From a virus (taxonomy: Duplodnaviria; Caudoviricetes): DNA of 64,000 bases. A model generated the notes under the pieces. The model saw only the letters and a program-made list of their open reading frames with translations, was not told the DNA's origin and made no database searches. Numbering within the stretch: the stretch's first letter is position 1; each line of letters opens with the position of its first letter. Location of the stretch: the IMG/VR virus record IMGVR_UViG_3300028738_000008, one strand, 5' to 3'. The position numbers and the translations under genes are program-made. Shown piece by piece: positions 1,865 to 44,602 of the stretch.

Positions 1865-4800
1865 TATTTCAATTTATTATCAAGAGGTGTGTTTATTTTT
1901 GATGACGCAACTAATTGACCATTCTTGCTCGCCATAGGTTTTATACTATATTGATCATGTTCAACTTGTGACGGCTTTATGTAAATATCTTTATCGGTGA
2001 ACGTTGAATTTGCATAGTAATTCATAGATAAAGCATTTTGTAGTACATCGATAGGCCCTTTTAATGATTGACCACCAATGATTTTAATTTGTAGTGTGAC
2101 CTTACACATTAAATATTGCATACCCATTCCTTCTGGATTCATATCCCAAGGCATATCATTATAGTCAATTGTTAAATTCTCTGGAATTATTTTACTGTTA
2201 ATAAAATCACCAAGTCTTAAAATAAGAATAGGCTGTCTTCCGAATATAGAATTTCTGATATCATTACCAGATTGTGTGTGCTGCGGTTCTCCCTGTCTCA
2301 TACATTGCTGTAAGAATGTTAATCGTCTATGAAAATCTTCTGGTGTCTGAGAATGAAAGCAAGGGCTATAATAATTATCGCTAATAGTTTTTGATCCAGT
2401 TGATATTTTACCATCTGTTCTATTTTCGACAGGCTTTCTTTCAGTATACACTTTTGAATATTTGTCATCGGCAGTGCTTTTTTTATTTTGAAGAAGAACA
2501 TATCGATCTAAATCGGCTTGCAATATTGCTAAACGTCTTTTTTCGTCTGAATTTAATGTTCGTGTCTTACGTGGCTCAGTAATAGCATTCTTTATTAAAG
2601 TTACCACAACCTGTCTTTCCAATTTAGCACCAAGCTCATTAATTGTGGCTGGTGTGTTATATAGATCATCTACAATACCTTTAGCATTTAGTTTATAAGT
2701 TACTTTAGCATCTGTTCCGAATAAAGCCAACATTCTAGCATCTATAAATGCTTTGGCTGCATCGACCCTTCTCTGGCTTAATGCTTTATTATATATTAAG
2801 CCTTCTTTAGCTAAATATAAAGCCGTTGTTGTGCCTACCAAATTAATGCTATAGTATTTACGATTTTCAACATTTGAAAAATTGTTAATCAGAAACGTGT
2901 TTAAAGCACATGAGCCTGTAAAACTATACATATTATCGTATAGTTTTGTATTCATAAAGCCACCACTTTCATAATTAGGGACAATACCACTAACATCATA
3001 TATACCTGTATTAAGTCCATCACTACCATTTTCATCAGCAGTATTCATTCCTTGAAATACCTCGTAACCCTTTGTGTACATGTCTTGAAATACAGACTGA
3101 ACATTACCTGTATTTGGGTAATTATTCATAAAGGACATTGATATAGTATCCGTAGATGAAATCTCTGGTGGATACTGTATAGGAAGTTTAAAGGAATCTA
3201 TTTCGAGTTGTAACTCATTAATTTTTGCCTGATAGTCTTTTTGTATAACGGAATCTGGATTTGTGTCATTCATTCCAAATGCAAAAAATTCGGCAATTGC
3301 TTTATGCTTATCAGCACCTCTAAATTTTTTATCGTTTAGTTGCTGTGGATAATCGACCAATAATGTAAATGTGAGAGTTCCACTTCTTTCAGAACCTGTG
3401 TATGAATATATTGGTTCATTTCTACCAAGCATTTGCGTTGACACGAATTTTGAAGCAGTCGTTTCATTAAACTGAATATCATAAGGCGGAAACCACATAA
3501 GTCTGCCATAGTATGGATACGAACCTATTTCAGATTTTGGAATCCAGCTACCGTCTTCGCATAATCCGCTTTCGGGTATTACCTTATATGCCAAATTCTC
3601 CAATGAAAACATTAAATTCTTATTATTTACAGATCCGTCATCGTCATTTATTGGATGAATCTTTGGCATAACCGTTTTATAGATGGTTGAATTAGGATTT
3701 CCGTTATATTTAACATTACCATTATAACGGATAGCTTTTGCATATCGATCATATTGGTCAAGCATCGTATGCTGTCTTAAACCAGATGAAACACCTATAA
3801 TTGAATCGGATGATGATTCATATACTCCTGATCCATTAAACATAGATTTACCCTTATTATCTACAAATATTTTACGATTAATATTAATTATATCTCCATT
3901 GGCAACATTCATTAAATTTTTAGTGTAATCCAATAAGCCTGTTTGAACACCAAAGTCACCGAGATAGCCTTTAGAGGTGTTATCATCACCCCATACAATT
4001 GAAGTATTCTTATTGAAGCCATCATCAGTGTTAATCCAAGGGTTTATACCCTCATTATCAGGTATAGTCTTAATAGTGTCTCCAAAATATTCTATTTTTT
4101 CACCATATTCATGACTAACATTTTTATCCCTCTCATTATTAACTGCTTCAAGACCAGTATTAATACTTGCCTCAATAGCAGAATTTGTTTGAAAACTTGG
4201 ATACCTGTTGAAATACTTATCCGAAAAATTATATTGATTATGCTTTGCTAGCTGTGTTTTAGTATTTTCGTCTTTAGCGTTTTGAAATAATTTATCATTT
4301 ATATAAATGTTCTTATTCAAATTTTTATAAAGCAAATTAATTTGCCCTGAGCCTGTATTGGCTATATAATCGTCTAATGTTGAAGATTTACTGAACGGAC
4401 TTTCTTTAACAGAATAAGAACCTGTTAAATCATTAACAAAATTTATAAAACTAGAAGGACTTTCTTTCTTTGTAATACTATAATTGAATTTCTTGGTGAC
4501 GAATTTAGTGTCCTTATTTCCGTCAAATAAATTCATTACACTGATCTTTGGAATTTCCTTTAATACCATTAAAGAAGCATTTGCTTGAAAGTTATATGCA
4601 AGCTGTTTGCCGAGCATAGCTAGTCCTATTTCGACGATTGGAGTCTTAGTTGATATAAGTCTTCCAATTACAGTATTGGATAGGTCAAATGAGCTGTAAG
4701 GCATTAATGTGCTTACTACACTGTCTATTGAATTAACTATTTTGGTTATGCTTGAAGCATTATCTAATGGATATTGATTGTTAGGGGAATACAGACTTCT

Positions 4801-24476: not shown

Positions 24477-24637
24477 ATCTTGTTGTTTTATTTTTTATAA
24501 TTATTTTATATATAAATACTATTTTTTATCCCAAAAGATTCGATTAAGCAAAAATTGTTAACGATTTGAGCCAAAATATTATAAACCCGATTTATAAAAA
24601 AACAAAAACAAGTATTTATTCTTGTATATCACATAAT

Positions 24638-29632: not shown

Positions 29633-29651
29633 ACTTTTTTAATATAAATAC

Positions 29652-29682
29652 TTGCATTTTATTATAGATATTAATACCTTTG
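29652..29682 (+). promoter_or_regulatory. Bacteroidota sigmaA-type promoter
   Basis: TTG at 29652, 20-nt spacer, TACCTTTG at 29675-29682 (consensus TTTG-N19-21-TAnnTTTG), 12 nt before ATG 29695. Confidence 0.6.
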
Positions 29683-29694
29683 CAAGAAAAATAT

Positions 29695-30045
29695 ATGCTA
29701 ATTACTAGAAAGGAAAAATTAAACGATGACGGTTCAATAGGATATATTGAATCCGTCTTCAATTCGGGAAATGTAATGAAGACAACATACTTTCCAGCTA
29801 TGGATAAGCTCTATATAGCGTTCAATCGTGGCGAAACATACAGTTATGCCAATGTGACGACGGAACTCTATAATACATTCGAAAAGGCTGACTCGCAAGG
29901 CGTATTCTTCTTCAAGACGTTTAATAAAAATTCAAAATACCCTGCTAGGAAGGAATTCACCCTTTACCCAACAGAAGTAAAGGAGATTAAGGACAGCATA
30001 AAAGACGGCATGAAACTTATTGAGAATGAAGATGGAGGAGAATAA
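29695..30045 (+). CDS. KTSC domain protein
   Basis: FNSGNVMKTTY...LYIAFNRGETYSYANV...YNTFEKADSQGVFF. Confidence 0.8.
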   Translation: MLITRKEKLNDDGSIGYIESVFNSGNVMKTTYFPAMDKLYIAFNRGETYSYANVTTELYNTFEKADSQGVFFFKTFNKNSKYPARKEFTLYPTEVKEIKDSIKDGMKLIENEDGGE

Positions 30046-30364
30046 ATTGGACTGGAAAGCGTTGGGTTTATTGAACGGGGTTGCTCCTGAAATGGAGAAA
30101 TATACCATTAATGTCTTTGAATTTGCCTTAGATTATATGAACATCCGTTTTGGCTATGCATCAAATGGATTGATATTTTCAGTGATTCTACAAATTATTA
30201 AGAATTATGCGCCGATTAAGAGTGAGATTATCGATATTATTGAAGAAGTGTCAGCGGAAGGCTGTTATGATCGTTCAAAATATACATGCTATAACGAAAT
30301 TGATTGTGAAGCACAATTCGTTAGCGAATACTGCGAAAATAAACTTAAACAATTAAACAATTAA
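30020..30364 (+). CDS. Small protein with N-terminus similar to the MCP N-terminus (start probably 30026 or 30032)
   Basis: DWKALGLLNGVAPEMEKYTINVFE aligns without gaps to MCP RWEKIGLLKGLDGHVKENCAQLFE. Confidence 0.6.
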   Translation: MRMKMEENKLDWKALGLLNGVAPEMEKYTINVFEFALDYMNIRFGYASNGLIFSVILQIIKNYAPIKSEIIDIIEEVSAEGCYDRSKYTCYNEIDCEAQFVSEYCENKLKQLNN

Positions 30365-30374
30365 AAAACATAAA

Positions 30375-30704
30375 ATGATAAACTATTTAAAACAAATCGA
30401 TTACGAGGATATAACCGAAAACAATATTGTTGACAAGCAATATGTTTTTAGAAAGAGTAATTCCGAGAAATGTAAACGAGTTCTTTTCGGCGAATTACCT
30501 GCCGAACTTTTAGACATTATTAATCATAATGATACACACATCGTAACATTGCCGTTTTGTCAATATAATGGTATTGGCTACACTGTTGACGACATTTCAT
30601 TAAATGACATGAAATTAGCTTTATATGAAAATAAGCGTATATTTCTTTACGACTGTTACGACACCCAATTTAAAAATTTTAGAGGACTAATTTTCAGTAA
30701 ATAA
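30375..30704 (+). CDS. Hypothetical protein
   Basis: ORF in operon, A-rich start context. Confidence 0.6.
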   Translation: MINYLKQIDYEDITENNIVDKQYVFRKSNSEKCKRVLFGELPAELLDIINHNDTHIVTLPFCQYNGIGYTVDDISLNDMKLALYENKRIFLYDCYDTQFKNFRGLIFSK

Positions 30705-30707
30705 CAT

Positions 30708-31187
30708 ATGAAAGCAAAAATTTATATCAAGTACCACAATCCAAATTGTAAACTGGAATCTCATGGCAATTGGATTGATTTAAAATCAGCTGAAACAGTC
30801 GTCATGCCAAAGGCATCACACCGACTAATTGATTTAGGCTTCTCGTGTCAGTTGCCAAAGTATTATCAGGCGAATATAGTTCCAAGGTCTTCAACATATA
30901 ATAAATTTGGCTTAATACAAGCTAATCATTATGGAGTGGTTGATGGCCCTGATGCAAACGGCGACGGATATTCTGGAAATGACGATCATTGGAAATTCAG
31001 TGCAATATCGTTGGGAACTGCAAAGGTCGATGAAGGTGATAGAATCTGCCAATTTGAAATCAAGCCAACAATGTTTGCGCCTTGGTATGTAAAGCTTAAG
31101 TGGCTATTTACCAACGATATTGAATTCATTGAAGTTAATGATTTAAAATCTGAAAATAGAGGCGGTCATGGATCAACAGGTAAATAG
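30708..31187 (+). CDS. dut: Trimeric dUTPase
   Basis: WIDLKS, IVPRSS, GVVDGPD, GDRICQF, RGGHGSTG motifs. Confidence 0.92.
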   Translation: MKAKIYIKYHNPNCKLESHGNWIDLKSAETVVMPKASHRLIDLGFSCQLPKYYQANIVPRSSTYNKFGLIQANHYGVVDGPDANGDGYSGNDDHWKFSAISLGTAKVDEGDRICQFEIKPTMFAPWYVKLKWLFTNDIEFIEVNDLKSENRGGHGSTGK

Positions 31188-31338
31188 TACCCAGTTAATT
31201 GAAACTAAGGAAGAAGCCATAAAAAGATGGGAAGCTTCGGGTCTTTTGGAAGGTCTTACTGGACTTATTACCGATGGATCGATGGATATGTATAAATGCT
31301 GTCCAGAATCATATATAATTGACGAAAATAATGAATAA
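31168..31338 (+). CDS. 56-aa protein with MCP N-terminal motif, absent from the ORF track
   Basis: MDQQVNSTQLIETKEEAIKRWEASGLLEGLTGLITDGSMDMYKCCPESYIIDENNE*; translated by hand. Confidence 0.6.
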   Translation: MDQQVNSTQLIETKEEAIKRWEASGLLEGLTGLITDGSMDMYKCCPESYIIDENNE

Positions 31339-31738
31339 AATTATGTATACATGGGATTATAGAAGACCTGATAATTTTAGTGCCGACATGCAAAATGATT
31401 GGAATCAAACAATAATGGTTGCATTCAATCATTTTGCTGTTAAACATGCTAAACATCTTAAGACGAATGTTAAGATGTATGTGCCTTAGAAATATAGAGA
31501 TATTATCGAATCGCTGTATTTTTACAGTCCTAAAGAGTCTGAGCTAATGAGTTCGTTTCTTAAAGGAGTATACCTTGTCGAATTTTATGATGGTAGTGTT
31601 GACCCGAAATGTCATCAAAAGGACGCTATTTTATTTGAAACAACACGTGACTGCTCAAAACGTTGTACAAGTGCTTGTAAGTGTAACGAGATCAAGACAT
31701 TTCCAGTCGAATTATTAATTTTTAATCATAACAAGTAA
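31331..31738 (+). pseudogene. MCP-internal-fragment homologue interrupted by an in-frame TAG at 31487-31489 (pseudogene or readthrough)
   Basis: WDY...QNDWNQTIMVAFN...VP*KYRDIIESLYF...YLV aligns to MCP WDY...QKDWNQTLLTKIN...SPEVSAVMDDLEYF...YLV; frame continues into track ORF 31547..31738. Confidence 0.65.
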
Positions 31739-31745
31739 TAAATAT

Positions 31746-32285
31746 ATGAGAATTGAATTAGGTAAAATAACAGAATACCAAGATAAACAATGTGAGTTGT
31801 TTTCTAATTATAGCGTTTCATCTTCTTTGGATGAATATGAAAAAAGAAATCAATTTAATAAAGATAAAATAATAAACGATATTTATAACGGCAAAAAGGC
31901 GGAGTTTTTAGTTTACAACTTATTAATATCAAGAAAAAAAGAACTAAATTCCCCTGATTTAAATATATACGAAAAATACAATAAATCTTATGATGCTGAT
32001 TTAGTATTAAATTCTTATGATGCTGAATCAGTATTAAAGGCTTTAAATATACACGTTAAAAGTCATAATGTAAATGGTATATTTCCTATTTCTTGGGTGT
32101 TCCAAAAAAATGACCCTTTATTGACTGAACAAAAAGATAATAATTTTTTAGCTTTAGTTGTTATGAATGAAGAAATAAACTATATGTATATGAAAAAAAT
32201 ATCAGAAGTAGATTTTAAGCCACCATTAAAAGAAAGTCTAAGAATGACAAAGGTTTGTGTATACGAAGCTGATTTAAAGGATTAA
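31746..32285 (+). CDS. Hypothetical protein, possible PD-(D/E)xK nuclease fold
   Basis: GKKAEFLV...PDL...DADL...IHVKS pattern. Confidence 0.45.
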   Translation: MRIELGKITEYQDKQCELFSNYSVSSSLDEYEKRNQFNKDKIINDIYNGKKAEFLVYNLLISRKKELNSPDLNIYEKYNKSYDADLVLNSYDAESVLKALNIHVKSHNVNGIFPISWVFQKNDPLLTEQKDNNFLALVVMNEEINYMYMKKISEVDFKPPLKESLRMTKVCVYEADLKD

Positions 32286-32327: not shown

Positions 32328-33482
32328 ATGAAAAGTTATCAAAAGGTTTTGAAAAAGATCATCGCTAAGGGCGTTGAAAAAGAAAGTGGCAGAGCCAATA
32401 TGCCTAATACAATTGGCATATCGCATGCGGTTATAAAAATGGACTTGCAAAAGGGCTTTCCATTGCTAACGACAAAGAAAATGCATTGGAAAGGCATTAT
32501 TCATGAATTGCTATGGTTTCTACGTGGCGAAACAAACATTAAATATCTTATTGATAACAATTGCAATATCTGGAATAGTGATGCATATCGTTGGTATTTA
32601 AAGTATGTCGGCACAATGGTTGAGCCTGATTACGACTATTTGATGGACGACCCAATTGAAAATAAGACCAGACCATTCACATCCGAAGAATTCGTTGAGA
32701 GAATTAAATTAAATCAGCTTGGTGATGATTTATCATATAAATTAGGCGATCTTGGTAAAGTTTATGGTTATCAATGGAGAAATCAAAATGGTGTTGATCA
32801 GGTTGCCGAGGTATTAGACGGCTTGAAAAATAATCCATACTCACGCTATCATATTATTGATGCATGGAACAAAGCCGAGTTCAAAGAAATGGCCCTTCCA
32901 CCATGTCATTTGTTATATCAGTTTATCGTCAGACCTATAAGTATTGAGAAAAGGGTGAAAATGTATTATGACAATGGTGAAATGGTTCATGTTATATTGG
33001 GCAATGCTGTTTACGATATTGATAGTACGTATACAAGCGAAAATGATATACATGGCGACAATTGTCCCGATCCGATTGGTATAGAATACTCAAAAGAAAA
33101 TATTGAATATCTTGATAAACAGAACATACCAAAGTTCTATCTTGACCTAAACATGTATCAAAGATCGGCAGATTCTGCGCTTGGAATTCCATTTAATTTA
33201 GCGTCAATGTCTTTATTATTGATGTTGTTTGCAAAAGCAAATAATATGATAGCTGGAATATCAACATGGATTGGTGGAGATACACATCTATATGTTAATC
33301 ATGTTGAAACAGCTAAAGAACAGCTTACTAGAACTCCGTTAGGCTTGCCTGAAATGAAAATTAACAAAGAATTGAATAATCTTGATGATATTTTATCATT
33401 AGATATAAATGATTTTGAGTTGGTTGGATACGAGTCATACCCAAAAATAAACTATGAATTATTTGTGGGACTTGCGAAATAA
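32328..33482 (+). CDS. thyA: Thymidylate synthase with two insertions
   Basis: FPLLTTKK, ELLWFL, YGYQWR, MALPPCH, YQRSAD, GIPFN, GDTHLY motifs. Confidence 0.95.
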   Translation: MKSYQKVLKKIIAKGVEKESGRANMPNTIGISHAVIKMDLQKGFPLLTTKKMHWKGIIHELLWFLRGETNIKYLIDNNCNIWNSDAYRWYLKYVGTMVEPDYDYLMDDPIENKTRPFTSEEFVERIKLNQLGDDLSYKLGDLGKVYGYQWRNQNGVDQVAEVLDGLKNNPYSRYHIIDAWNKAEFKEMALPPCHLLYQFIVRPISIEKRVKMYYDNGEMVHVILGNAVYDIDSTYTSENDIHGDNCPDPIGIEYSKENIEYLDKQNIPKFYLDLNMYQRSADSALGIPFNLASMSLLLMLFAKANNMIAGISTWIGGDTHLYVNHVETAKEQLTRTPLGLPEMKINKELNNLDDILSLDINDFELVGYESYPKINYELFVGLAK

Positions 33483-38878: not shown

Positions 38879-40375
38879 TCAATATGACCATTTAAAGCCA
38901 TTCATTGTTTTATTATCTTTACACCATCTTGATATTGTAGACTGATTAACACCCTCAGACTTAGAAGCTATTAATGTGGACTCATATGTATTTATTATGA
39001 TGTTATTTAGATTTCTTTTGTAAACTGTTTTACATAATACTTCCTTCTGTTTATCAGATATACCATTTTTTAATTTAGTTTGACTTATTTTATCCTTTGT
39101 GGTCTGATCTCTTTCTTTACCGAGCCAGAATTTTGGAGAATTTATGCTCAATTCTGTTTTTTCATCATCTGTCTTTGCTTTGCCGTATTTTTTTGCGTTA
39201 TCAGACCCAGCAAGAGATATTCGCTTATTTATCCATTCAGTGCTTTGCTTAATTCCTAAATGTGATCTTGACATTTTCTCAAGAGTTTCTGTAGATGGAA
39301 TTGAATTACATCCGCCAGATTCTATGTTATATCCAAATTTTCGATCATTTGATTTATATTTCGAAATGTAATAGATTTCTTTTTCATTTAGTTCGGTTAT
39401 ATTTGTGGCACTATCAATCATGGTGAATTCAAATGCATCCCAGCCATATTTATTAAATGAGTTTAATAAATATTGATTATAAAATGCACCTTTATTATAT
39501 GCACTTTTATACTCCCATATTCTTTTATTAAGTGTTCGAGTTGTTTGACCTATATAGATTTTACCGTTTAATGCATTAGTTATTTTATATATATAACCAA
39601 AAATAACCATATTATTCTCATTCAATCTGATAACGTATCGTAATTTACCACAGTTCCACACCCTTTTAGAATCATCCCTTATCATACTTTTTTGTATGTC
39701 GCTAATTTCATTGTTTCTAAAAAATTTAGTGCCGTAAGTAAATTTATGATATAAAATATTTGAACTTTTTAATAAAATCTTGTAATCTGGTTGAATAACT
39801 TTATTCAGATAAAAATTATTTGAATCATATATATTTTTATCTTTATTTGTATAATTTAGATCGGCGTATGATGTTATTTTTAATGGCTTATAATCGTTTA
39901 TGAATTGTTTTAAAATCTTAGAAAAAACTCCAACGACAATATGTCCTAAACTTATCGAAAATCTTGACAAATCAAATTCATTATCATTTTGTTTGCCGTT
40001 CATTTTTGATTTATTATCGAAAGTCATGACAGCAATCAGCTCCTCATTTTTATAAGCACCGTAAAAAATTTGAGACTTATCAGTTCCTTGTATGTGATTT
40101 ACATTTAAAAAATCATTTTTTACAGTATTTTCAATGTGTCGTATTTTACATTCTCTAGCATTAATTCTTATTTGATCTCTAAAATTCAACTTATTTATCT
40201 TATCTTTTATGATGTTTTTATGATGTTTTAAATCATGATAATTATAAATTATACAGTTTTCATAAGATGTTAAATAATTTTCTTTAATTTTTTTTAAATC
40301 CCCTCTGTTCATCGTGATCATATCATCGATGCTTAGAAATAGGATTATAGTTTTATTATAAACCAGATTCCTCAT
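38879..40375 (-). mobile_element. Chimeric homing endonuclease: Hef-like/GNAT-like N-half fused to GIY-YIG
   Basis: INARECKI...NHIQG...AVMTF...LSRF...SYAD...VWNCGKLRY, then GYIYKITNALNGKIYIGQT and NUMOD-like repeats. Confidence 0.75.
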
Positions 40376-40727
40376 ATATTCTATGTATTAGCGTTTGTGA
40401 TCTTTTTGAGGGTGCTTTTGTTAAAAATGCTGAATATCTTGACTCATTATAATTGATATCAAAATCATATTGATTTTTTGTAATATCTATGATTGTGCCA
40501 TCAAGTTTATTTTTTAAAAACCAGTGAGTATCGTTATTTATTTTTAATATTGATGGACAATAAATTTCCTTTTCGTCATCATCTAATAAATGATATAACG
40601 TTTCAGTTGCAACATAACAGTGACCTGTATATTTGTTTCTGAATGGCATTTTTCTGTATTTAGGCTTTAATAAGCTGTCATCCAGATTTTCGATTATTAA
40701 TTTAATTAATTCTTTCATATTTTTCAC
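40356..40727 (-). CDS. Small protein with putative Cys-His-Asp (transglutaminase/papain-like) triad
   Basis: GHCYVATETLYHLL...THWFLK...IIDIT...QY. Confidence 0.5.
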   Translation of the reverse strand: MKNMKELIKLIIENLDDSLLKPKYRKMPFRNKYTGHCYVATETLYHLLDDDEKEIYCPSILKINNDTHWFLKNKLDGTIIDITKNQYDFDINYNESRYSAFLTKAPSKRSQTLIHRIYEESGL

Positions 40728-40805: not shown

Positions 40806-42449
40806 CTAGTTTAAATCGCCGATTCCGAATGTCTGTAGACCATCGCAGAAGATTCTACCGAAGTAACGGTTAAGAACCATTTTCTTAGCATAACGAGTGA
40901 TGATACCACGTATTGGTGTGAAATCAAAAGGGTTATACATTACAGGTGTTAACTGCATGGGAACGTAGGGAGCATAAATGTAACCGGTTTCTAGGATACT
41001 TGTTCCTTTGTGACCGATAAGGATCGTGTTTGCTGGTGCATATGGGTCACGATACACAAGGTAACGTGCTGATAATGTACCTACTTTTTCGATACCCATG
41101 TTATATTTATCCTGTTCTGGGTCTGCATTAGACACGTGGAAATACTCTAAGTCATCCATTACGGCACTAACTTCTGGAGAAACAACGATCCAAGATGCGC
41201 CACCACGAAGGGTAGATTTGTGAATCTGAGCACTGATCTGGTTGATCTTGGTTAACAAGGTCTGATTCCAGTCTTTCTGTGTACCCATGTAGGCAGTAGT
41301 CTGACGTCTAAGACCGTTATAGTCCCAACGTGCTGTCCAAGCTGCACCTCTACGTAAGTCACGTAAGATTTCTCTGTCGATTTCAGCTGCCATTTGTTCT
41401 GACAATAAAGCAGTCAATTCAGCTTCTGCATCGATGTTGTGGAATGCGCTAACGTCCTGTGCAAGTTCTGGAGTCCACTGTGATCTCATTTTACGAGTTT
41501 CAACAGAAACAGTTACCTGATCAAGAACGAAAGTTACCTCAGCCATGTGAGAATCTTCTTCAAGATCGCTGTATGTTCTGTAAGTATAGTTGAAAGTTAC
41601 GCCAGAAGTTGCAGCTGATAATGGTTGGTAACCATCTGCGCCTGGGTATGTTAGGTCAACGATCAATTCAATAACGCCAGCTGTATTGACAATTGCTTGT
41701 CCGTATTTCTGAACCTTAACATTGAAAGGAAGAGTTGCTCCAGCAAGAATGCTTTCAGTTGCAAAAGCAGCTGGTGCATTGAAGGCTGTGTTGGAAGTGA
41801 TTTTCAAACCTGCAAGGAATGATTCAGTATCCTGAGCAGCACCCTTAGGCCCGATCAATTTACCTTGTTCTGTTGCAGTGAAACCACTGAATTTTACACT
41901 TACATACTTGTCACCAACAACATATGTTGAAACAGTTGTACCTGTGTTAGTGGTAATTTCCCCTTTAGAGTTGTCGAACAATGAAGTTCCTTCGTCGTTG
42001 TAGCTCTGAGCATAGAATGCATCATACAATGAACGTGATTCGTACTGAGTACCAGCATCTGGTTGATTGTCAGCAGCATTTCCATAAGCACCACGAGGGG
42101 CCGTATGAGGAGCAGTACTAGTTTTAGGGTTGATGTAATACAATTTACCGATAGGTAAATTCAACGCCTGAACACTAACGATATCGTTGGCAAGCAATTT
42201 TGCGAATACCCTACGAATTACAGGGAACGCAACAGTCTCAAACTGACCTGATGATGCTGAATCGGTTGATTCATTGATCATATAAGATAACTGGTTTTCG
42301 AAAAGCTGTGCGCAGTTTTCTTTTACATGTCCGTCAAGACCTTTAAGCAAACCGATTTTTTCCCAACGGTTTGTAGTTATTTCTCTTTGTTCACGAAGTT
42401 GTTTAAGACCAATGTTTCCTACTTCGTTACTTTCTGTTAAAAATCCCAT
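40806..42449 (-). CDS. Major capsid protein (T4 gp23-like)
   Basis: RRVFAKLLANDIVSVQAL, TRKMRSQWTPELAQD, AEAELTALLSEQMAAEIDREI, YAPYVP, TRYAK motifs. Confidence 0.97.
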   Translation of the reverse strand: MGFLTESNEVGNIGLKQLREQREITTNRWEKIGLLKGLDGHVKENCAQLFENQLSYMINESTDSASSGQFETVAFPVIRRVFAKLLANDIVSVQALNLPIGKLYYINPKTSTAPHTAPRGAYGNAADNQPDAGTQYESRSLYDAFYAQSYNDEGTSLFDNSKGEITTNTGTTVSTYVVGDKYVSVKFSGFTATEQGKLIGPKGAAQDTESFLAGLKITSNTAFNAPAAFATESILAGATLPFNVKVQKYGQAIVNTAGVIELIVDLTYPGADGYQPLSAATSGVTFNYTYRTYSDLEEDSHMAEVTFVLDQVTVSVETRKMRSQWTPELAQDVSAFHNIDAEAELTALLSEQMAAEIDREILRDLRRGAAWTARWDYNGLRRQTTAYMGTQKDWNQTLLTKINQISAQIHKSTLRGGASWIVVSPEVSAVMDDLEYFHVSNADPEQDKYNMGIEKVGTLSARYLVYRDPYAPANTILIGHKGTSILETGYIYAPYVPMQLTPVMYNPFDFTPIRGIITRYAKKMVLNRYFGRIFCDGLQTFGIGDLN

Positions 42450-42492: not shown

Positions 42493-43836
42493 TTATCTTT
42501 TTTCAACGTAGTCAATAACCTTCTGCATTCTTCTCATGTGCTCGTTATTGATGTAAGTAGTTTTTTCGCTCACTTCATCTAATTTTTGTTTTGAAGACGG
42601 CTGTATAGAGGCTGATACTTTCGCTTCAAGACTTTCAGTGATAGGTTTCTTTCCTTTTTTCATTTCTGAAATAACGGATTTGTACTTATTCTGTGATTCG
42701 GTGATATCATTAATGTTTTTGAATTCATTAATAACTTTTAATTTTTCTTGTTGAGTCAATGCTAATTCTTCATTTATCAAGATATTGTTAACATGTGCAA
42801 GGTTGGTATTAAATACAGCCATTTCTTTTAACTGAGTTCTGTATTTTCCCAAGGCAGTTTTGTATTTGTCGATAATTGCCGTAGCTTCTTCGTTCAACTT
42901 AATAGTAGCATTCAATTTCTTGGTTACTGCTTTGTTTTCGTTGATAAGTCCAGCTACTTTCTTTTTAGACTCTTGCATAAAGGCTGGAGACTGATCCTTT
43001 TCGCCTGCGCTAAGATATTCATTGTTTGGGGTATGTCTGCCAGTGTTGTTACGTCTAGCAGTATAAGACAAACCATGAGATTCATCAACTTCGGGTTCAT
43101 TTGAAAATTCTTCTTCCTGTAATGCACTGTCGATTTCGTCGTCAGATGGAAGTTCGATTTCATATACAGAATCAAGACCTTCTTCCGCACCTGCTTCTGT
43201 TGAATCGTCAAATGATGTTTCTGCACCTGCTTCTGTGTCACCTGTGACATCAGTTTCTGGTTCAGTACCTTCAAGACCCATTGCAGCTATAATGCTATCC
43301 AATTTATTTCTTAATTCGATTAATTCGTTTCCAACACTTTCGTCGTCGCCAACTTCTTCGCCTGCGGCTTTTTCACCTGCTTCTTCACCTTCTGGTTCAT
43401 TGCCTTCAATTCCGCCATCTGGAGCTTCTTCGCCTGTGTCGCTCATGTTATCAAATTCTGATAATTCCCTTTCAATGTCTTCCATTGTCAGAGACATGCC
43501 ACCAGCATTTGCGTCACCTTCTGTTTGATCAAATTCTTCTTTGATTACATCCTTTGCTGGGATGTCTTTACCTTTAACTTTTTTCTCGGTCTCTTTGGTT
43601 TTCATAACAGAATCTTTGTTTTTTTTATCGTCCGATTCTTCGGACTCTTTATTTTTGTCAACATCATCCTTGTCGGATTCTTCTGTTGATTTTTTATTTT
43701 TCTTAAATTCTTCCTTGATCAATTCGCTGATCTTAGCAGGGTATTCTTCAGCCAACAAATTTTTAGCTCTTGCCGTAGCAGCTTCTTTCAATTGGTTGTA
43801 CTCTATTAAGGCTTCTTTTAATTTATTCTTTTCCAT
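42493..43836 (-). CDS. Prohead core scaffold protein (gp22-like)
   Basis: Acidic/coiled-coil, many L/I-x-E sites, between protease and MCP. Confidence 0.8.
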   Translation of the reverse strand: MEKNKLKEALIEYNQLKEAATARAKNLLAEEYPAKISELIKEEFKKNKKSTEESDKDDVDKNKESEESDDKKNKDSVMKTKETEKKVKGKDIPAKDVIKEEFDQTEGDANAGGMSLTMEDIERELSEFDNMSDTGEEAPDGGIEGNEPEGEEAGEKAAGEEVGDDESVGNELIELRNKLDSIIAAMGLEGTEPETDVTGDTEAGAETSFDDSTEAGAEEGLDSVYEIELPSDDEIDSALQEEEFSNEPEVDESHGLSYTARRNNTGRHTPNNEYLSAGEKDQSPAFMQESKKKVAGLINENKAVTKKLNATIKLNEEATAIIDKYKTALGKYRTQLKEMAVFNTNLAHVNNILINEELALTQQEKLKVINEFKNINDITESQNKYKSVISEMKKGKKPITESLEAKVSASIQPSSKQKLDEVSEKTTYINNEHMRRMQKVIDYVEKR

Positions 43837-43921: not shown

Positions 43922-44602
43922 TTATAGTAAAAATTTATCGAGTGCATTTAACATCTTATCCTCGCTCTCACTCAGCTTTTTAGTTGCAACAATTGGTTTT
44001 TCACCGTTATCTGGAAACAAAAAGGCCCCAGGCGTACTAGGTGAACTAACTAAGTCAAAGCTAATTAGCTCGAAATCGTCTTGCACATAATTCTCGCCTC
44101 TGATCTCTTTTAATGTTCCAACGCCTCTAGAAGAAATCCCTAATTTGATCTTATTCATAATGTATAAAAGTATCTTATCGCCTATAACAGATACAACGCC
44201 ACTTCTTATGAAACCTGGGCTGACGATCAATTTTAGCTTACCATATAAAGTATTTTCGTTATCATCAGTGCCCCACCACATCTTTGTGATCATATGTGAT
44301 ATGTTTTGTAATGATATAACAGAACTATCTGGATGGTCTGTTTCGCCCATAGCCTGATTGTTATCTACCAGCTTTTGGTATTCCAAAATTTGCGGCAATA
44401 ACACTTCCTTGGAATATATTCTACCGTTCTTATTTTTTACACCCCATTTCTGCAAAATACACGTAATCATCACTGGTTCATTTTCTTTAAACTGAAAACT
44501 TTCCGTAATGAGTTCTTGATTTAGTTCTGCTGATATGTAGCCTGAATCAGATTCAATCAATATCCCGAATCCACACTCGCCTTTTTTTAATATATTGCTC
44601 AT
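43922..44602 (-). CDS. Prohead maturation protease (gp21-like)
   Basis: KNKNGRIYS, GETDHPD, GISSRGVGT, FDLVSSPSTPGA motifs. Confidence 0.95.
   Translation of the reverse strand: MSNILKKGECGFGILIESDSGYISAELNQELITESFQFKENEPVMITCILQKWGVKNKNGRIYSKEVLLPQILEYQKLVDNNQAMGETDHPDSSVISLQNISHMITKMWWGTDDNENTLYGKLKLIVSPGFIRSGVVSVIGDKILLYIMNKIKLGISSRGVGTLKEIRGENYVQDDFELISFDLVSSPSTPGAFLFPDNGEKPIVATKKLSESEDKMLNALDKFLL

Follow-up and report, generated by a model that had tools for sequence, protein, structure and literature searches.

Why should a large T4-like phage carry, on either side of its dut gene, several small genes that look like pieces of its own major capsid protein (MCP)? The question was raised by a 64,000-nt stretch of DNA (hereafter the window) on an 82,065-bp IMG/VR contig (record IMGVR_UViG_3300028738_000008; completeness estimate 25%), in which a first-pass annotation had read such a cluster as early-expressed capsid mimics. 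We call the open reading frames (ORFs) in question A (30020-30364), B (31168-31338), C (31331-31489) and D (31547-31738), all on the plus strand; related loci are numbered Lnnn, the closest being L003 and L008, and individual proteins Pnnnn, P0001 being the MCP of the window. The reading that we tentatively favour, with a probability that we put slightly under one half, is that the MCP propeptide acts, in this group of phages, as a portable module for prohead targeting and processing, in analogy with the capsid targeting sequence (CTS) of T4.

The MCP gene (40806-42449, minus strand) encodes a gp23-type protein of 547 aa that matched T4 gp23 structures with an expectation value (E) of 3e-21 and the PHROG 'major head protein' family at 3e-67. 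In pairwise BLASTP, A residues 1-61 aligned with MCP 18-79 (E 3e-5), B residues 9-56 with MCP 17-63 (E 2e-7) and C residues 12-42 with MCP 375-408 (E 5e-6), while D gave no direct match to MCP (E 0.31). The resemblance of three small genes near dut to parts of the MCP, as first proposed, was therefore borne out, and so was the division into two genes with an N-terminal motif and one resembling an internal segment: in a six-frame translation of the whole contig, W-x3-G-L-L-x-G occurred three times only, in MCP, A and B. Profile comparisons gave stronger support. An eight-sequence A-family profile aligned with the MCP-family profile in hhalign (probability 96.7%, E 4.5e-10; A columns 12-74 on MCP 27-88), as did a two-sequence profile of C-D and its relative P0007 with MCP 370-438 (97.5%, E 5.6e-12), and a hidden Markov model (HMM) of the MCP N-terminus found B at 2.3e-4 among 32,031 ORFs. 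Conversely, an A-family HMM run over 32,114 ORFs picked up all MCPs of the clade, at about 1e-10, and matched the MCP N-terminus in whole-genome six-frame translations at about 4e-12. At the level of sequence, we consider the likeness of A, B and C to MCP confirmed as real and above chance.

The copied regions are narrow. Only MCP residues 27-88 (A), 17-63 (B) and 370-438 (C-D) are covered: A and B are paralogs of the MCP N-terminal part and C-D of another, two parts of the MCP in all. The first part lies within codons 1-88 (42186-42449, minus strand), comprising the propeptide, with a putative cleavage site after I58-N59-E60, and the first helix of the N-arm; the second, also resembled by P0007, is encoded at 41136-41342 (minus strand). 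In none of A, B, C-D and P0007 did the family profile detect a full HK97-fold body, with its E-loop, its A domain and the P domain that carries the spine helix. Pfam and PHROGs searches with the four returned nothing, Gp23 of Pfam not being matched even at E 10 and no internal-protein family of PHROGs being matched by A, B or C-D.

The evidence that carries our reading is clearest for B. This stand-alone propeptide paralog of 56 aa, whose start overlaps the end of dut and has GAGG 6 nt upstream, contains W-x3-GLLEGL and a protease-type site, I-D-E, after which only three residues remain before the stop; its S-Y-I-I-D-E aligns with S-Y-M-I-N-E of MCP. B is 35% identical to the MCP of its own phage, compared with about 47% (by eye) to a module in another phage with which it shares a signature, MY-x-CCP, that is absent from MCP. 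Because this signature is common to B, to the stand-alone 65-aa protein P0172 and to the C-terminal part of a 177-aa L095 protein encoded directly behind dut, B is a member of a lineage of its own and not a recent scrap of its own MCP. The initial description of the genes as fragments of the phage's own MCP thus stands as far as homology goes and fails as to origin: they are members of older, widespread families.

With a B-type profile we retrieved 24 module carriers. Within unrelated small accessory proteins its position may be N-terminal, C-terminal or internal, usually with I/V-x-E kept at the spacing of MCP. It stands in front of an A domain in P0045 (with S-Y-K-I-N-E between the parts) and P0156 (S-Y-I-I-N-E), and behind one in L095 and P0015; it precedes a 54-aa tail in L050/P0161 and is carried by an X-module-Z family (P0162-P0171), by a Y-family protein (L056/P0164/P0179) and by a family coded just downstream of the MCP gene, in which an N-domain, the module and a C-domain occur in all combinations. 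In MCP the site begins 29 residues beyond the Trp (W29, I58-N59-E60); of 26 B-type modules, 16 have [IV]-x-E at exactly this distance, a count that is somewhat circular, the carriers having been retrieved by a profile that includes the site columns. Two more modules, including B of the window, have it at Trp +30, four module proteins end at the Glu of the site, and the Ile column is at least 90% conserved. Among A-family proteins, [IV]-x-E was found there in only 17 of 77, which is the background level.

Directly upstream of the MCP gene are two genes of interest here. One encodes a gp21-type prohead core serine protease (43922-44602, minus strand; Pfam Peptidase_S77, 7.6e-17), presumably the processing enzyme. 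The other encodes an acidic, coiled-coil-like protein (42493-43836, minus strand) which gave no match in Pfam and which, by its composition and its gp22-like position between protease and MCP, is a putative scaffold and the putative docking partner of the module. In T4, gp21 cuts after L/I-x-E, the N-terminal 65 residues of gp23 are removed and probably contact the scaffold core, and CTS propeptides load variable internal proteins into that core (PMC9026906, PMC9546572). By analogy, module proteins would be produced late, from an operon headed by the motif TATAAATA; they would dock through the module on the scaffold core inside the assembling prohead, at the place of the MCP N-terminus itself, would therefore become enclosed in the prohead, and would be trimmed there by the S77 protease at I-x-E, as T4 internal proteins are by way of the CTS. 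We favour this portable-tag reading because the copied part is the cleavable, core-facing end of MCP, because its boundary is the protease site and because it has been shuffled onto unrelated proteins, whose genes are moreover dispensable and fast-evolving. The spacing of the protease site, kept in the copied propeptide, likewise argues for prohead targeting or processing rather than for decoying. The decoy function first proposed for these genes accordingly found no support, the locus being also without pointers to defence.

The portable-tag reading suits the B-type modules well and A less well, and several points besides the circularity just mentioned weigh against it. A has neither a conserved protease site nor a separate cargo domain, which makes it a poor fit to a tag plus cargo; a cleaved B would keep only three residues and hence no cargo. 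Several carriers have the module at their C-terminus, where the T4 CTS is not found. The genes lie among those for nucleotide metabolism, outside the head module; from TATAAATA downstream to the small genes the distance is 380 nt to 1.5 kb, and their co-transcription is assumed. The packaging, cleavage and binding of A and B are, finally, inferred.

A belongs to a large family. Its start is probably the ATG at 30032, as in the database homolog P0010, and over its first ~62 residues it matches the later half of the MCP propeptide together with the first helix of the mature N-arm. A profile search of 1.84 billion representatives gave 540 A-family clusters at 50% identity (E <= 1e-3), including 88 at E <= 1e-10; among the 150 matches listed, almost all were of 105-150 aa and matched end to end. 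Neither Pfam nor PHROGs covers the family. The consensus of 137 members, EKWE..GLLEGLPEERKE ... ETLIFPII.RI ... ID.EAEF, parallels the MCP stretch RWEKIGLLEGLEGNVKEN ... FETVAFPVIRRV. AlphaFold2 modelled A as four helices with a pLDDT of 82 and a pTM of 0.78. Fold searches with this model against the PDB and BFVD gave no match at E <= 0.001, and an Atlas shape search gave generic helical matches only; the Atlas model of the homolog P0012 aligned with a Gp23-family cluster at a TM-score of 0.57, a weak lead. For the C-terminal helix of A, the best-scoring place on MCP is the spine helix 334-357, a match that at E 0.007-0.02 and a probability of 2-6% is suggestive only. An Atlas feature search proposed DUF7841 (0.85), which hmmscan with the available Pfam copy did not confirm.

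How A evolves bears on several explanations. Since synonymous sites are saturated (pS 0.62-0.80), we compared the proportions of non-synonymous (pN) and synonymous (pS) differences directly instead of using dN/dS. Orthologs at the same place are 37% (L003) and 62% (L008) identical to A, compared with 82-87% for the flanking KTSC-domain and dut genes; A has a pN of 0.20-0.39 against a saturated pS of 0.73-0.79, the pN of dut and the KTSC gene being 0.08-0.09. A thus diverges 2.5-5 times faster than its neighbours. Because its pN is far below the saturated pS and its frame has stayed open over 112-114 codons, A is nevertheless a constrained gene, and the possibility of neutral evolution raised at the outset does not apply to it. 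Further members are encoded at L095, at L055 and, at unrelated positions, in two complete genomes. Presence in only two of the five complete genomes makes A an accessory gene. In L008 there is, besides the ortholog, another and diverged A-family gene (2736-3089) behind thyA (HMM E 6e-14), so that two copies occur in some phages. A locus search for relatives with A as the sole query returned nothing. A and B are selectively maintained, and neither is described in Pfam or PHROGs. For A, possible roles are those of a protein associated with the core, of a modulator of assembly, or of a mimic directed at whatever reads the first quarter of MCP.

Rapid divergence, a patchy distribution and varying genomic positions are also what one would expect if A and B were agents of conflict, that is, soluble mimics of the N-terminal quarter of MCP that compete with nascent MCP for a recogniser. 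This could be a host factor or a capsid-sensing defence (EF-Tu/Gol-Lit-like or CapRel-like), or else the scaffold of a co-infecting relative, for which the mimic would be a dominant-negative poison. Such mimicry would account for an A without cargo domain or conserved cleavage site, and the span of A on MCP includes the start of the segment (MCP 69-108) that aligns with T4 gp23* residues 25-64, the most conserved region of gp23; moreover, EF-Tu is bound in T4 by the first quarter of gp23, which thereby licenses Lit (PMC3014915). One would, however, normally expect the mimic of an activating trigger to fire the sensor and not to block it. Mimicry leaves the conserved protease-site spacing of the B-type modules unexplained, and the operon looks late rather than early. 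Searches of Pfam and PHROGs revealed no defence or anti-defence family, nor did the neighbours (KTSC, dut, thyA) suggest a link to defence evasion. We regard conflict mimicry as unlikely, if still worth weighing, and its more specific form, in which the whole A family of at least 540 clusters and the free propeptide B act as mimics of the MCP first quarter against EF-Tu, a CapRel-like sensor or a rival scaffold, as decidedly improbable. Were it true, giant phages would carry dedicated, rapidly evolving 'self-capsid mimic' genes, a new class devoted to counter-defence or inter-phage competition.

That the homology of A and B is confined to the scaffold-facing N-terminal region of MCP would also suit regulators of assembly. 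In this case A and B would not be delivered as cargo; they would compete with the MCP N-terminus for the scaffold core or the prohead protease and so tune the timing, size or fidelity of capsid formation, by a logic like that with which CpmB of Staphylococcus aureus pathogenicity islands (SaPI) or Sid of P4 redirects assembly. The T4 length-determining mutations A66D, A94V and G97S fall in this region (PMC9546572). B consists of little besides propeptide, some proteins have two A domains in tandem (P0040, P0075, P0087), and a late-type motif is present. Yet three of the five complete clade genomes build the same capsid without these genes, and divergence as rapid as that of A would be unusual for a morphogenetic factor fitting a highly conserved MCP. 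We think a regulatory role rather improbable.

The history of C and D is different. C starts within the end of B and stops at an in-frame TAG (31487-31489); D continues in the same frame (31490-31738), with an ATG of its own at 31547, and aligns with the C-terminal half of P0007. The latter is an intact 154-aa ORF of L003 in the same slot, between dut and thyA, and matches MCP 375-438 at E 2e-14. Read through, C and D give 135 residues, all of which align with P0007, at 28% identity. On this sequence evidence, C and D are the two parts of one gene, split by a single TAG. Since contigs from three peat runs other than the source are identical over this codon, it is not an assembly error. The C-D of the window has lost by deletion the best-conserved R-G-G-A stretch, and its D part, with a pN of 0.52 against a pS of 0.65 (pN/pS ~0.8), is under weak constraint. 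In L008 the same slot holds pieces of 66 and 39 aa in rearranged order, and ORFs resembling MCP 370-438 were found only in the closest relatives of the window. C-D, a copy of an MCP A-domain segment, is thus probably a decaying gene. It is possible that its TAG is read through by an amber-suppressor tRNA of the lineage: a tRNA with the anticodon CTA is encoded in the genome of the nearest relative (G001:68159-68233, that is L121:8159-8233), and a tRNA scan of the window and the 82-kb contig found none. This relative (L120-L122, G001:58181-87868) has, in several arrays, more than 30 tRNA genes, including two that ARAGORN left unassigned (two-letter anticodons). The dut gene likewise ends in TAG and would gain four residues if this were suppressed.

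Should A and B be seen in the same light, as functionless remains of ectopic recombination that involved the MCP gene, perhaps with the help of the neighbouring GIY-YIG endonuclease? The state of C-D, with its TAG, its lost motif, its weak constraint and its scrambled counterpart in L008, speaks for duplication debris, as do carriers such as P0175 and L058, which by eye are very similar to the MCP N-terminus and look like very recent captures. Against this stand the many diverged, full-length open members (540 clusters for A, 24 carriers of the B-type module), conservation concentrated at a few positions of the motif and in the spacing of the site, the confident fold of the A model, and the occurrence of MCP-like pieces only in frame and in sense. 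As an account of the whole cluster we consider debris very improbable.

When would these genes be expressed? The operon runs in the order KTSC gene, A, g30375, dut, B, C-D and onward, and is headed by TATAAATA (29643-29650, plus strand), a T4-late-promoter-like motif between the KTSC gene and a divergent upstream gene. The motif occurs 40 times in the window, against 14.9 +/- 4.2 expected (2.7-fold enrichment), and this site is kept as TATAAATACTT at the same spot in L003, L004 and L095; the flanking genes are 48-87% identical in protein to those of the window in L003 and L004, to which this comparison was limited. The intergenic space 29633-29679 has no sigma-70-like site on its plus strand. 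As the motif is conserved and a sigma-70-like site is lacking, the cluster is probably transcribed late, possibly among other times; that its small genes are co-transcribed is assumed from their tight or overlapping spacing. These observations run counter to the first-pass annotation, which had posited a host-type promoter, early expression and the lack of a late motif upstream. Over the whole window, TATAAATA (e.g. at 24511, 29643, 36551, 43919 on the minus strand, 44621) is often found 30-90 nt upstream of gene starts, including that of the scaffold. The 43-nt spacer upstream of the MCP gene is without it, this gene probably being co-transcribed with that of the scaffold.

Among described systems, the nearest kind is that of capsid-targeting propeptides and internal proteins; what is new is a version derived from the MCP propeptide, together with the unannotated A family. 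In T4, a short N-terminal propeptide, the CTS, takes the non-essential, hypervariable proteins IPI, IPII, IPIII and Alt into the scaffold core, as we propose here. As in T4, the tag ends at an L/I-x-E site, which is I-D-E in B though not present in A itself, and a protease of the gp21 type is encoded; the carriers are diverse, as the internal-protein cargo is between related T4-like phages, and A, found in some genomes only and far more divergent than its neighbours, is likewise non-essential and hypervariable. Unlike the CTS, which is N-terminal, of the MKTYQEFIAE type found in IPIII and the like, and 10-19 residues long, the tag proposed here is an MCP-propeptide paralog of 50-60 residues at either end or in the middle of its carrier; B, moreover, has no cargo, and A no site. 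With the propeptide and N-arm of T4 gp23, A and B have W-x3-(G)LL-E-G in common; B in addition shares the FE-NQ stretch and the I-x-E cleavage context, and A the FP-x-I-R-R helix of the part aligned with gp23* 25-64. Unlike gp23, A and B lack the whole HK97-fold body and so cannot form a shell; they are separate accessory genes, neither MCP alleles nor vertex paralogs of the gp24 type. SaPI CpmB, P4 Sid and the cargo-loading peptides of encapsulins offer a further parallel, in which a short module that copies or targets a capsid or scaffold interface enters or redirects an HK97-fold shell. Those modules copy the MCP-binding helix of the scaffold or bind the shell interior, whereas here the phage would copy the scaffold-facing end of its own MCP. 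In Gol-Lit and CapRel an MCP segment is recognised. The Gol region (gp23 residues 93-122) falls within the first quarter of that protein and coincides in part with what A resembles in MCP; the present locus, unlike those systems, has no sensor, protease or toxin partner.

If the portable-tag reading is right, a simple rule (W-x3-GLLEGL, about 20 further residues, and I-x-E at W+29) would predict from sequence the proteins, otherwise invisible in metagenomes, that are packed by giant T4-like phages and delivered along with the DNA. New internal proteins would then be recruited through recombination that involves the capsid gene at its 5' end, and the module would be a natural tag to try for loading proteins into T4-like heads. 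The large, hitherto unannotated A family can in any event be named as a paralog of the capsid N-terminal domain.

Further observations concern the module carriers. P0179, of 181 aa, starts with a B-type module, and its residues 21-91 match positions 170-238 of Pfam Portal_T4 at E 5.7e-6, which passes the curated cut-off. The small proteins of the clade may therefore reuse pieces of a second head gene as well. The second half of the 181-aa L056 protein was considered as a copy of MCP 366-405 and rejected (domain E 110); it is the domain that is conserved in its own family. L095 has, between its A+B fusion gene and thyA, a 172-aa ORF (L095:5963-6481) whose C-terminal stretch VTVQPLSPPTGKIYF resembles the gp23 N-arm motif at MCP 76-105, a likeness that is not significant (E 0.64).

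The phage itself is uncultured, its sources being peat metagenomes only, 24 runs of which contain the same DNA. We collected 80 related IMG/VR loci with MCPs 74-98% identical, several on complete genomes of 320-365 kb; the clade is one of ~320-360-kb phages. The deposited phages closest in MCP, Microcystis phage Mel-JY01 and Flavobacterium phage immuto, are only ~40% identical. When the locus, an A homolog and a B-type module were compared with deposited phages by blastn and tblastn, none had a match.

Within the operon, the first gene (29680-30045) has a KTSC domain (Pfam, 1.1e-9) and is 82% identical in L003. The identity of dut (30708-31187) was upheld by a dUTPase match (PHROG 135, 4.2e-17), with 86% identity in L003 and L008. 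Between A and dut lies g30375 (30375-30704), which follows A in L003 and L008 as well and may be a functional partner of A; in P0098 an A domain is joined to one that resembles g30375, a weak match (hhalign E 4.8e-4). The idea that g30375 is itself a fourth fragment of MCP was rejected (hhalign against MCP, E 0.29). The more distant relatives L004-L007 have dut and thyA and lack A, B and C-D, the region of these genes being a variable slot. A 179-aa ORF before thyA (31746-32285) has no family match and no counterpart in L003. ThyA (32328-33482) carries a variable internal insertion, being of 384 aa here and 395 aa in L003, and the same slot of L008 (1613-2443) encodes a different, 276-aa thymidylate synthase, apparently a non-orthologous replacement. 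Directly downstream of the MCP gene, a GIY-YIG homing-endonuclease-like gene (498 aa) and a YunG-like ORF (123 aa) occupy 38879-40727 on the minus strand; both are absent from L003, where the gap between MCP and the next gene is only 66 nt, and the pair looks like a mobile insertion.

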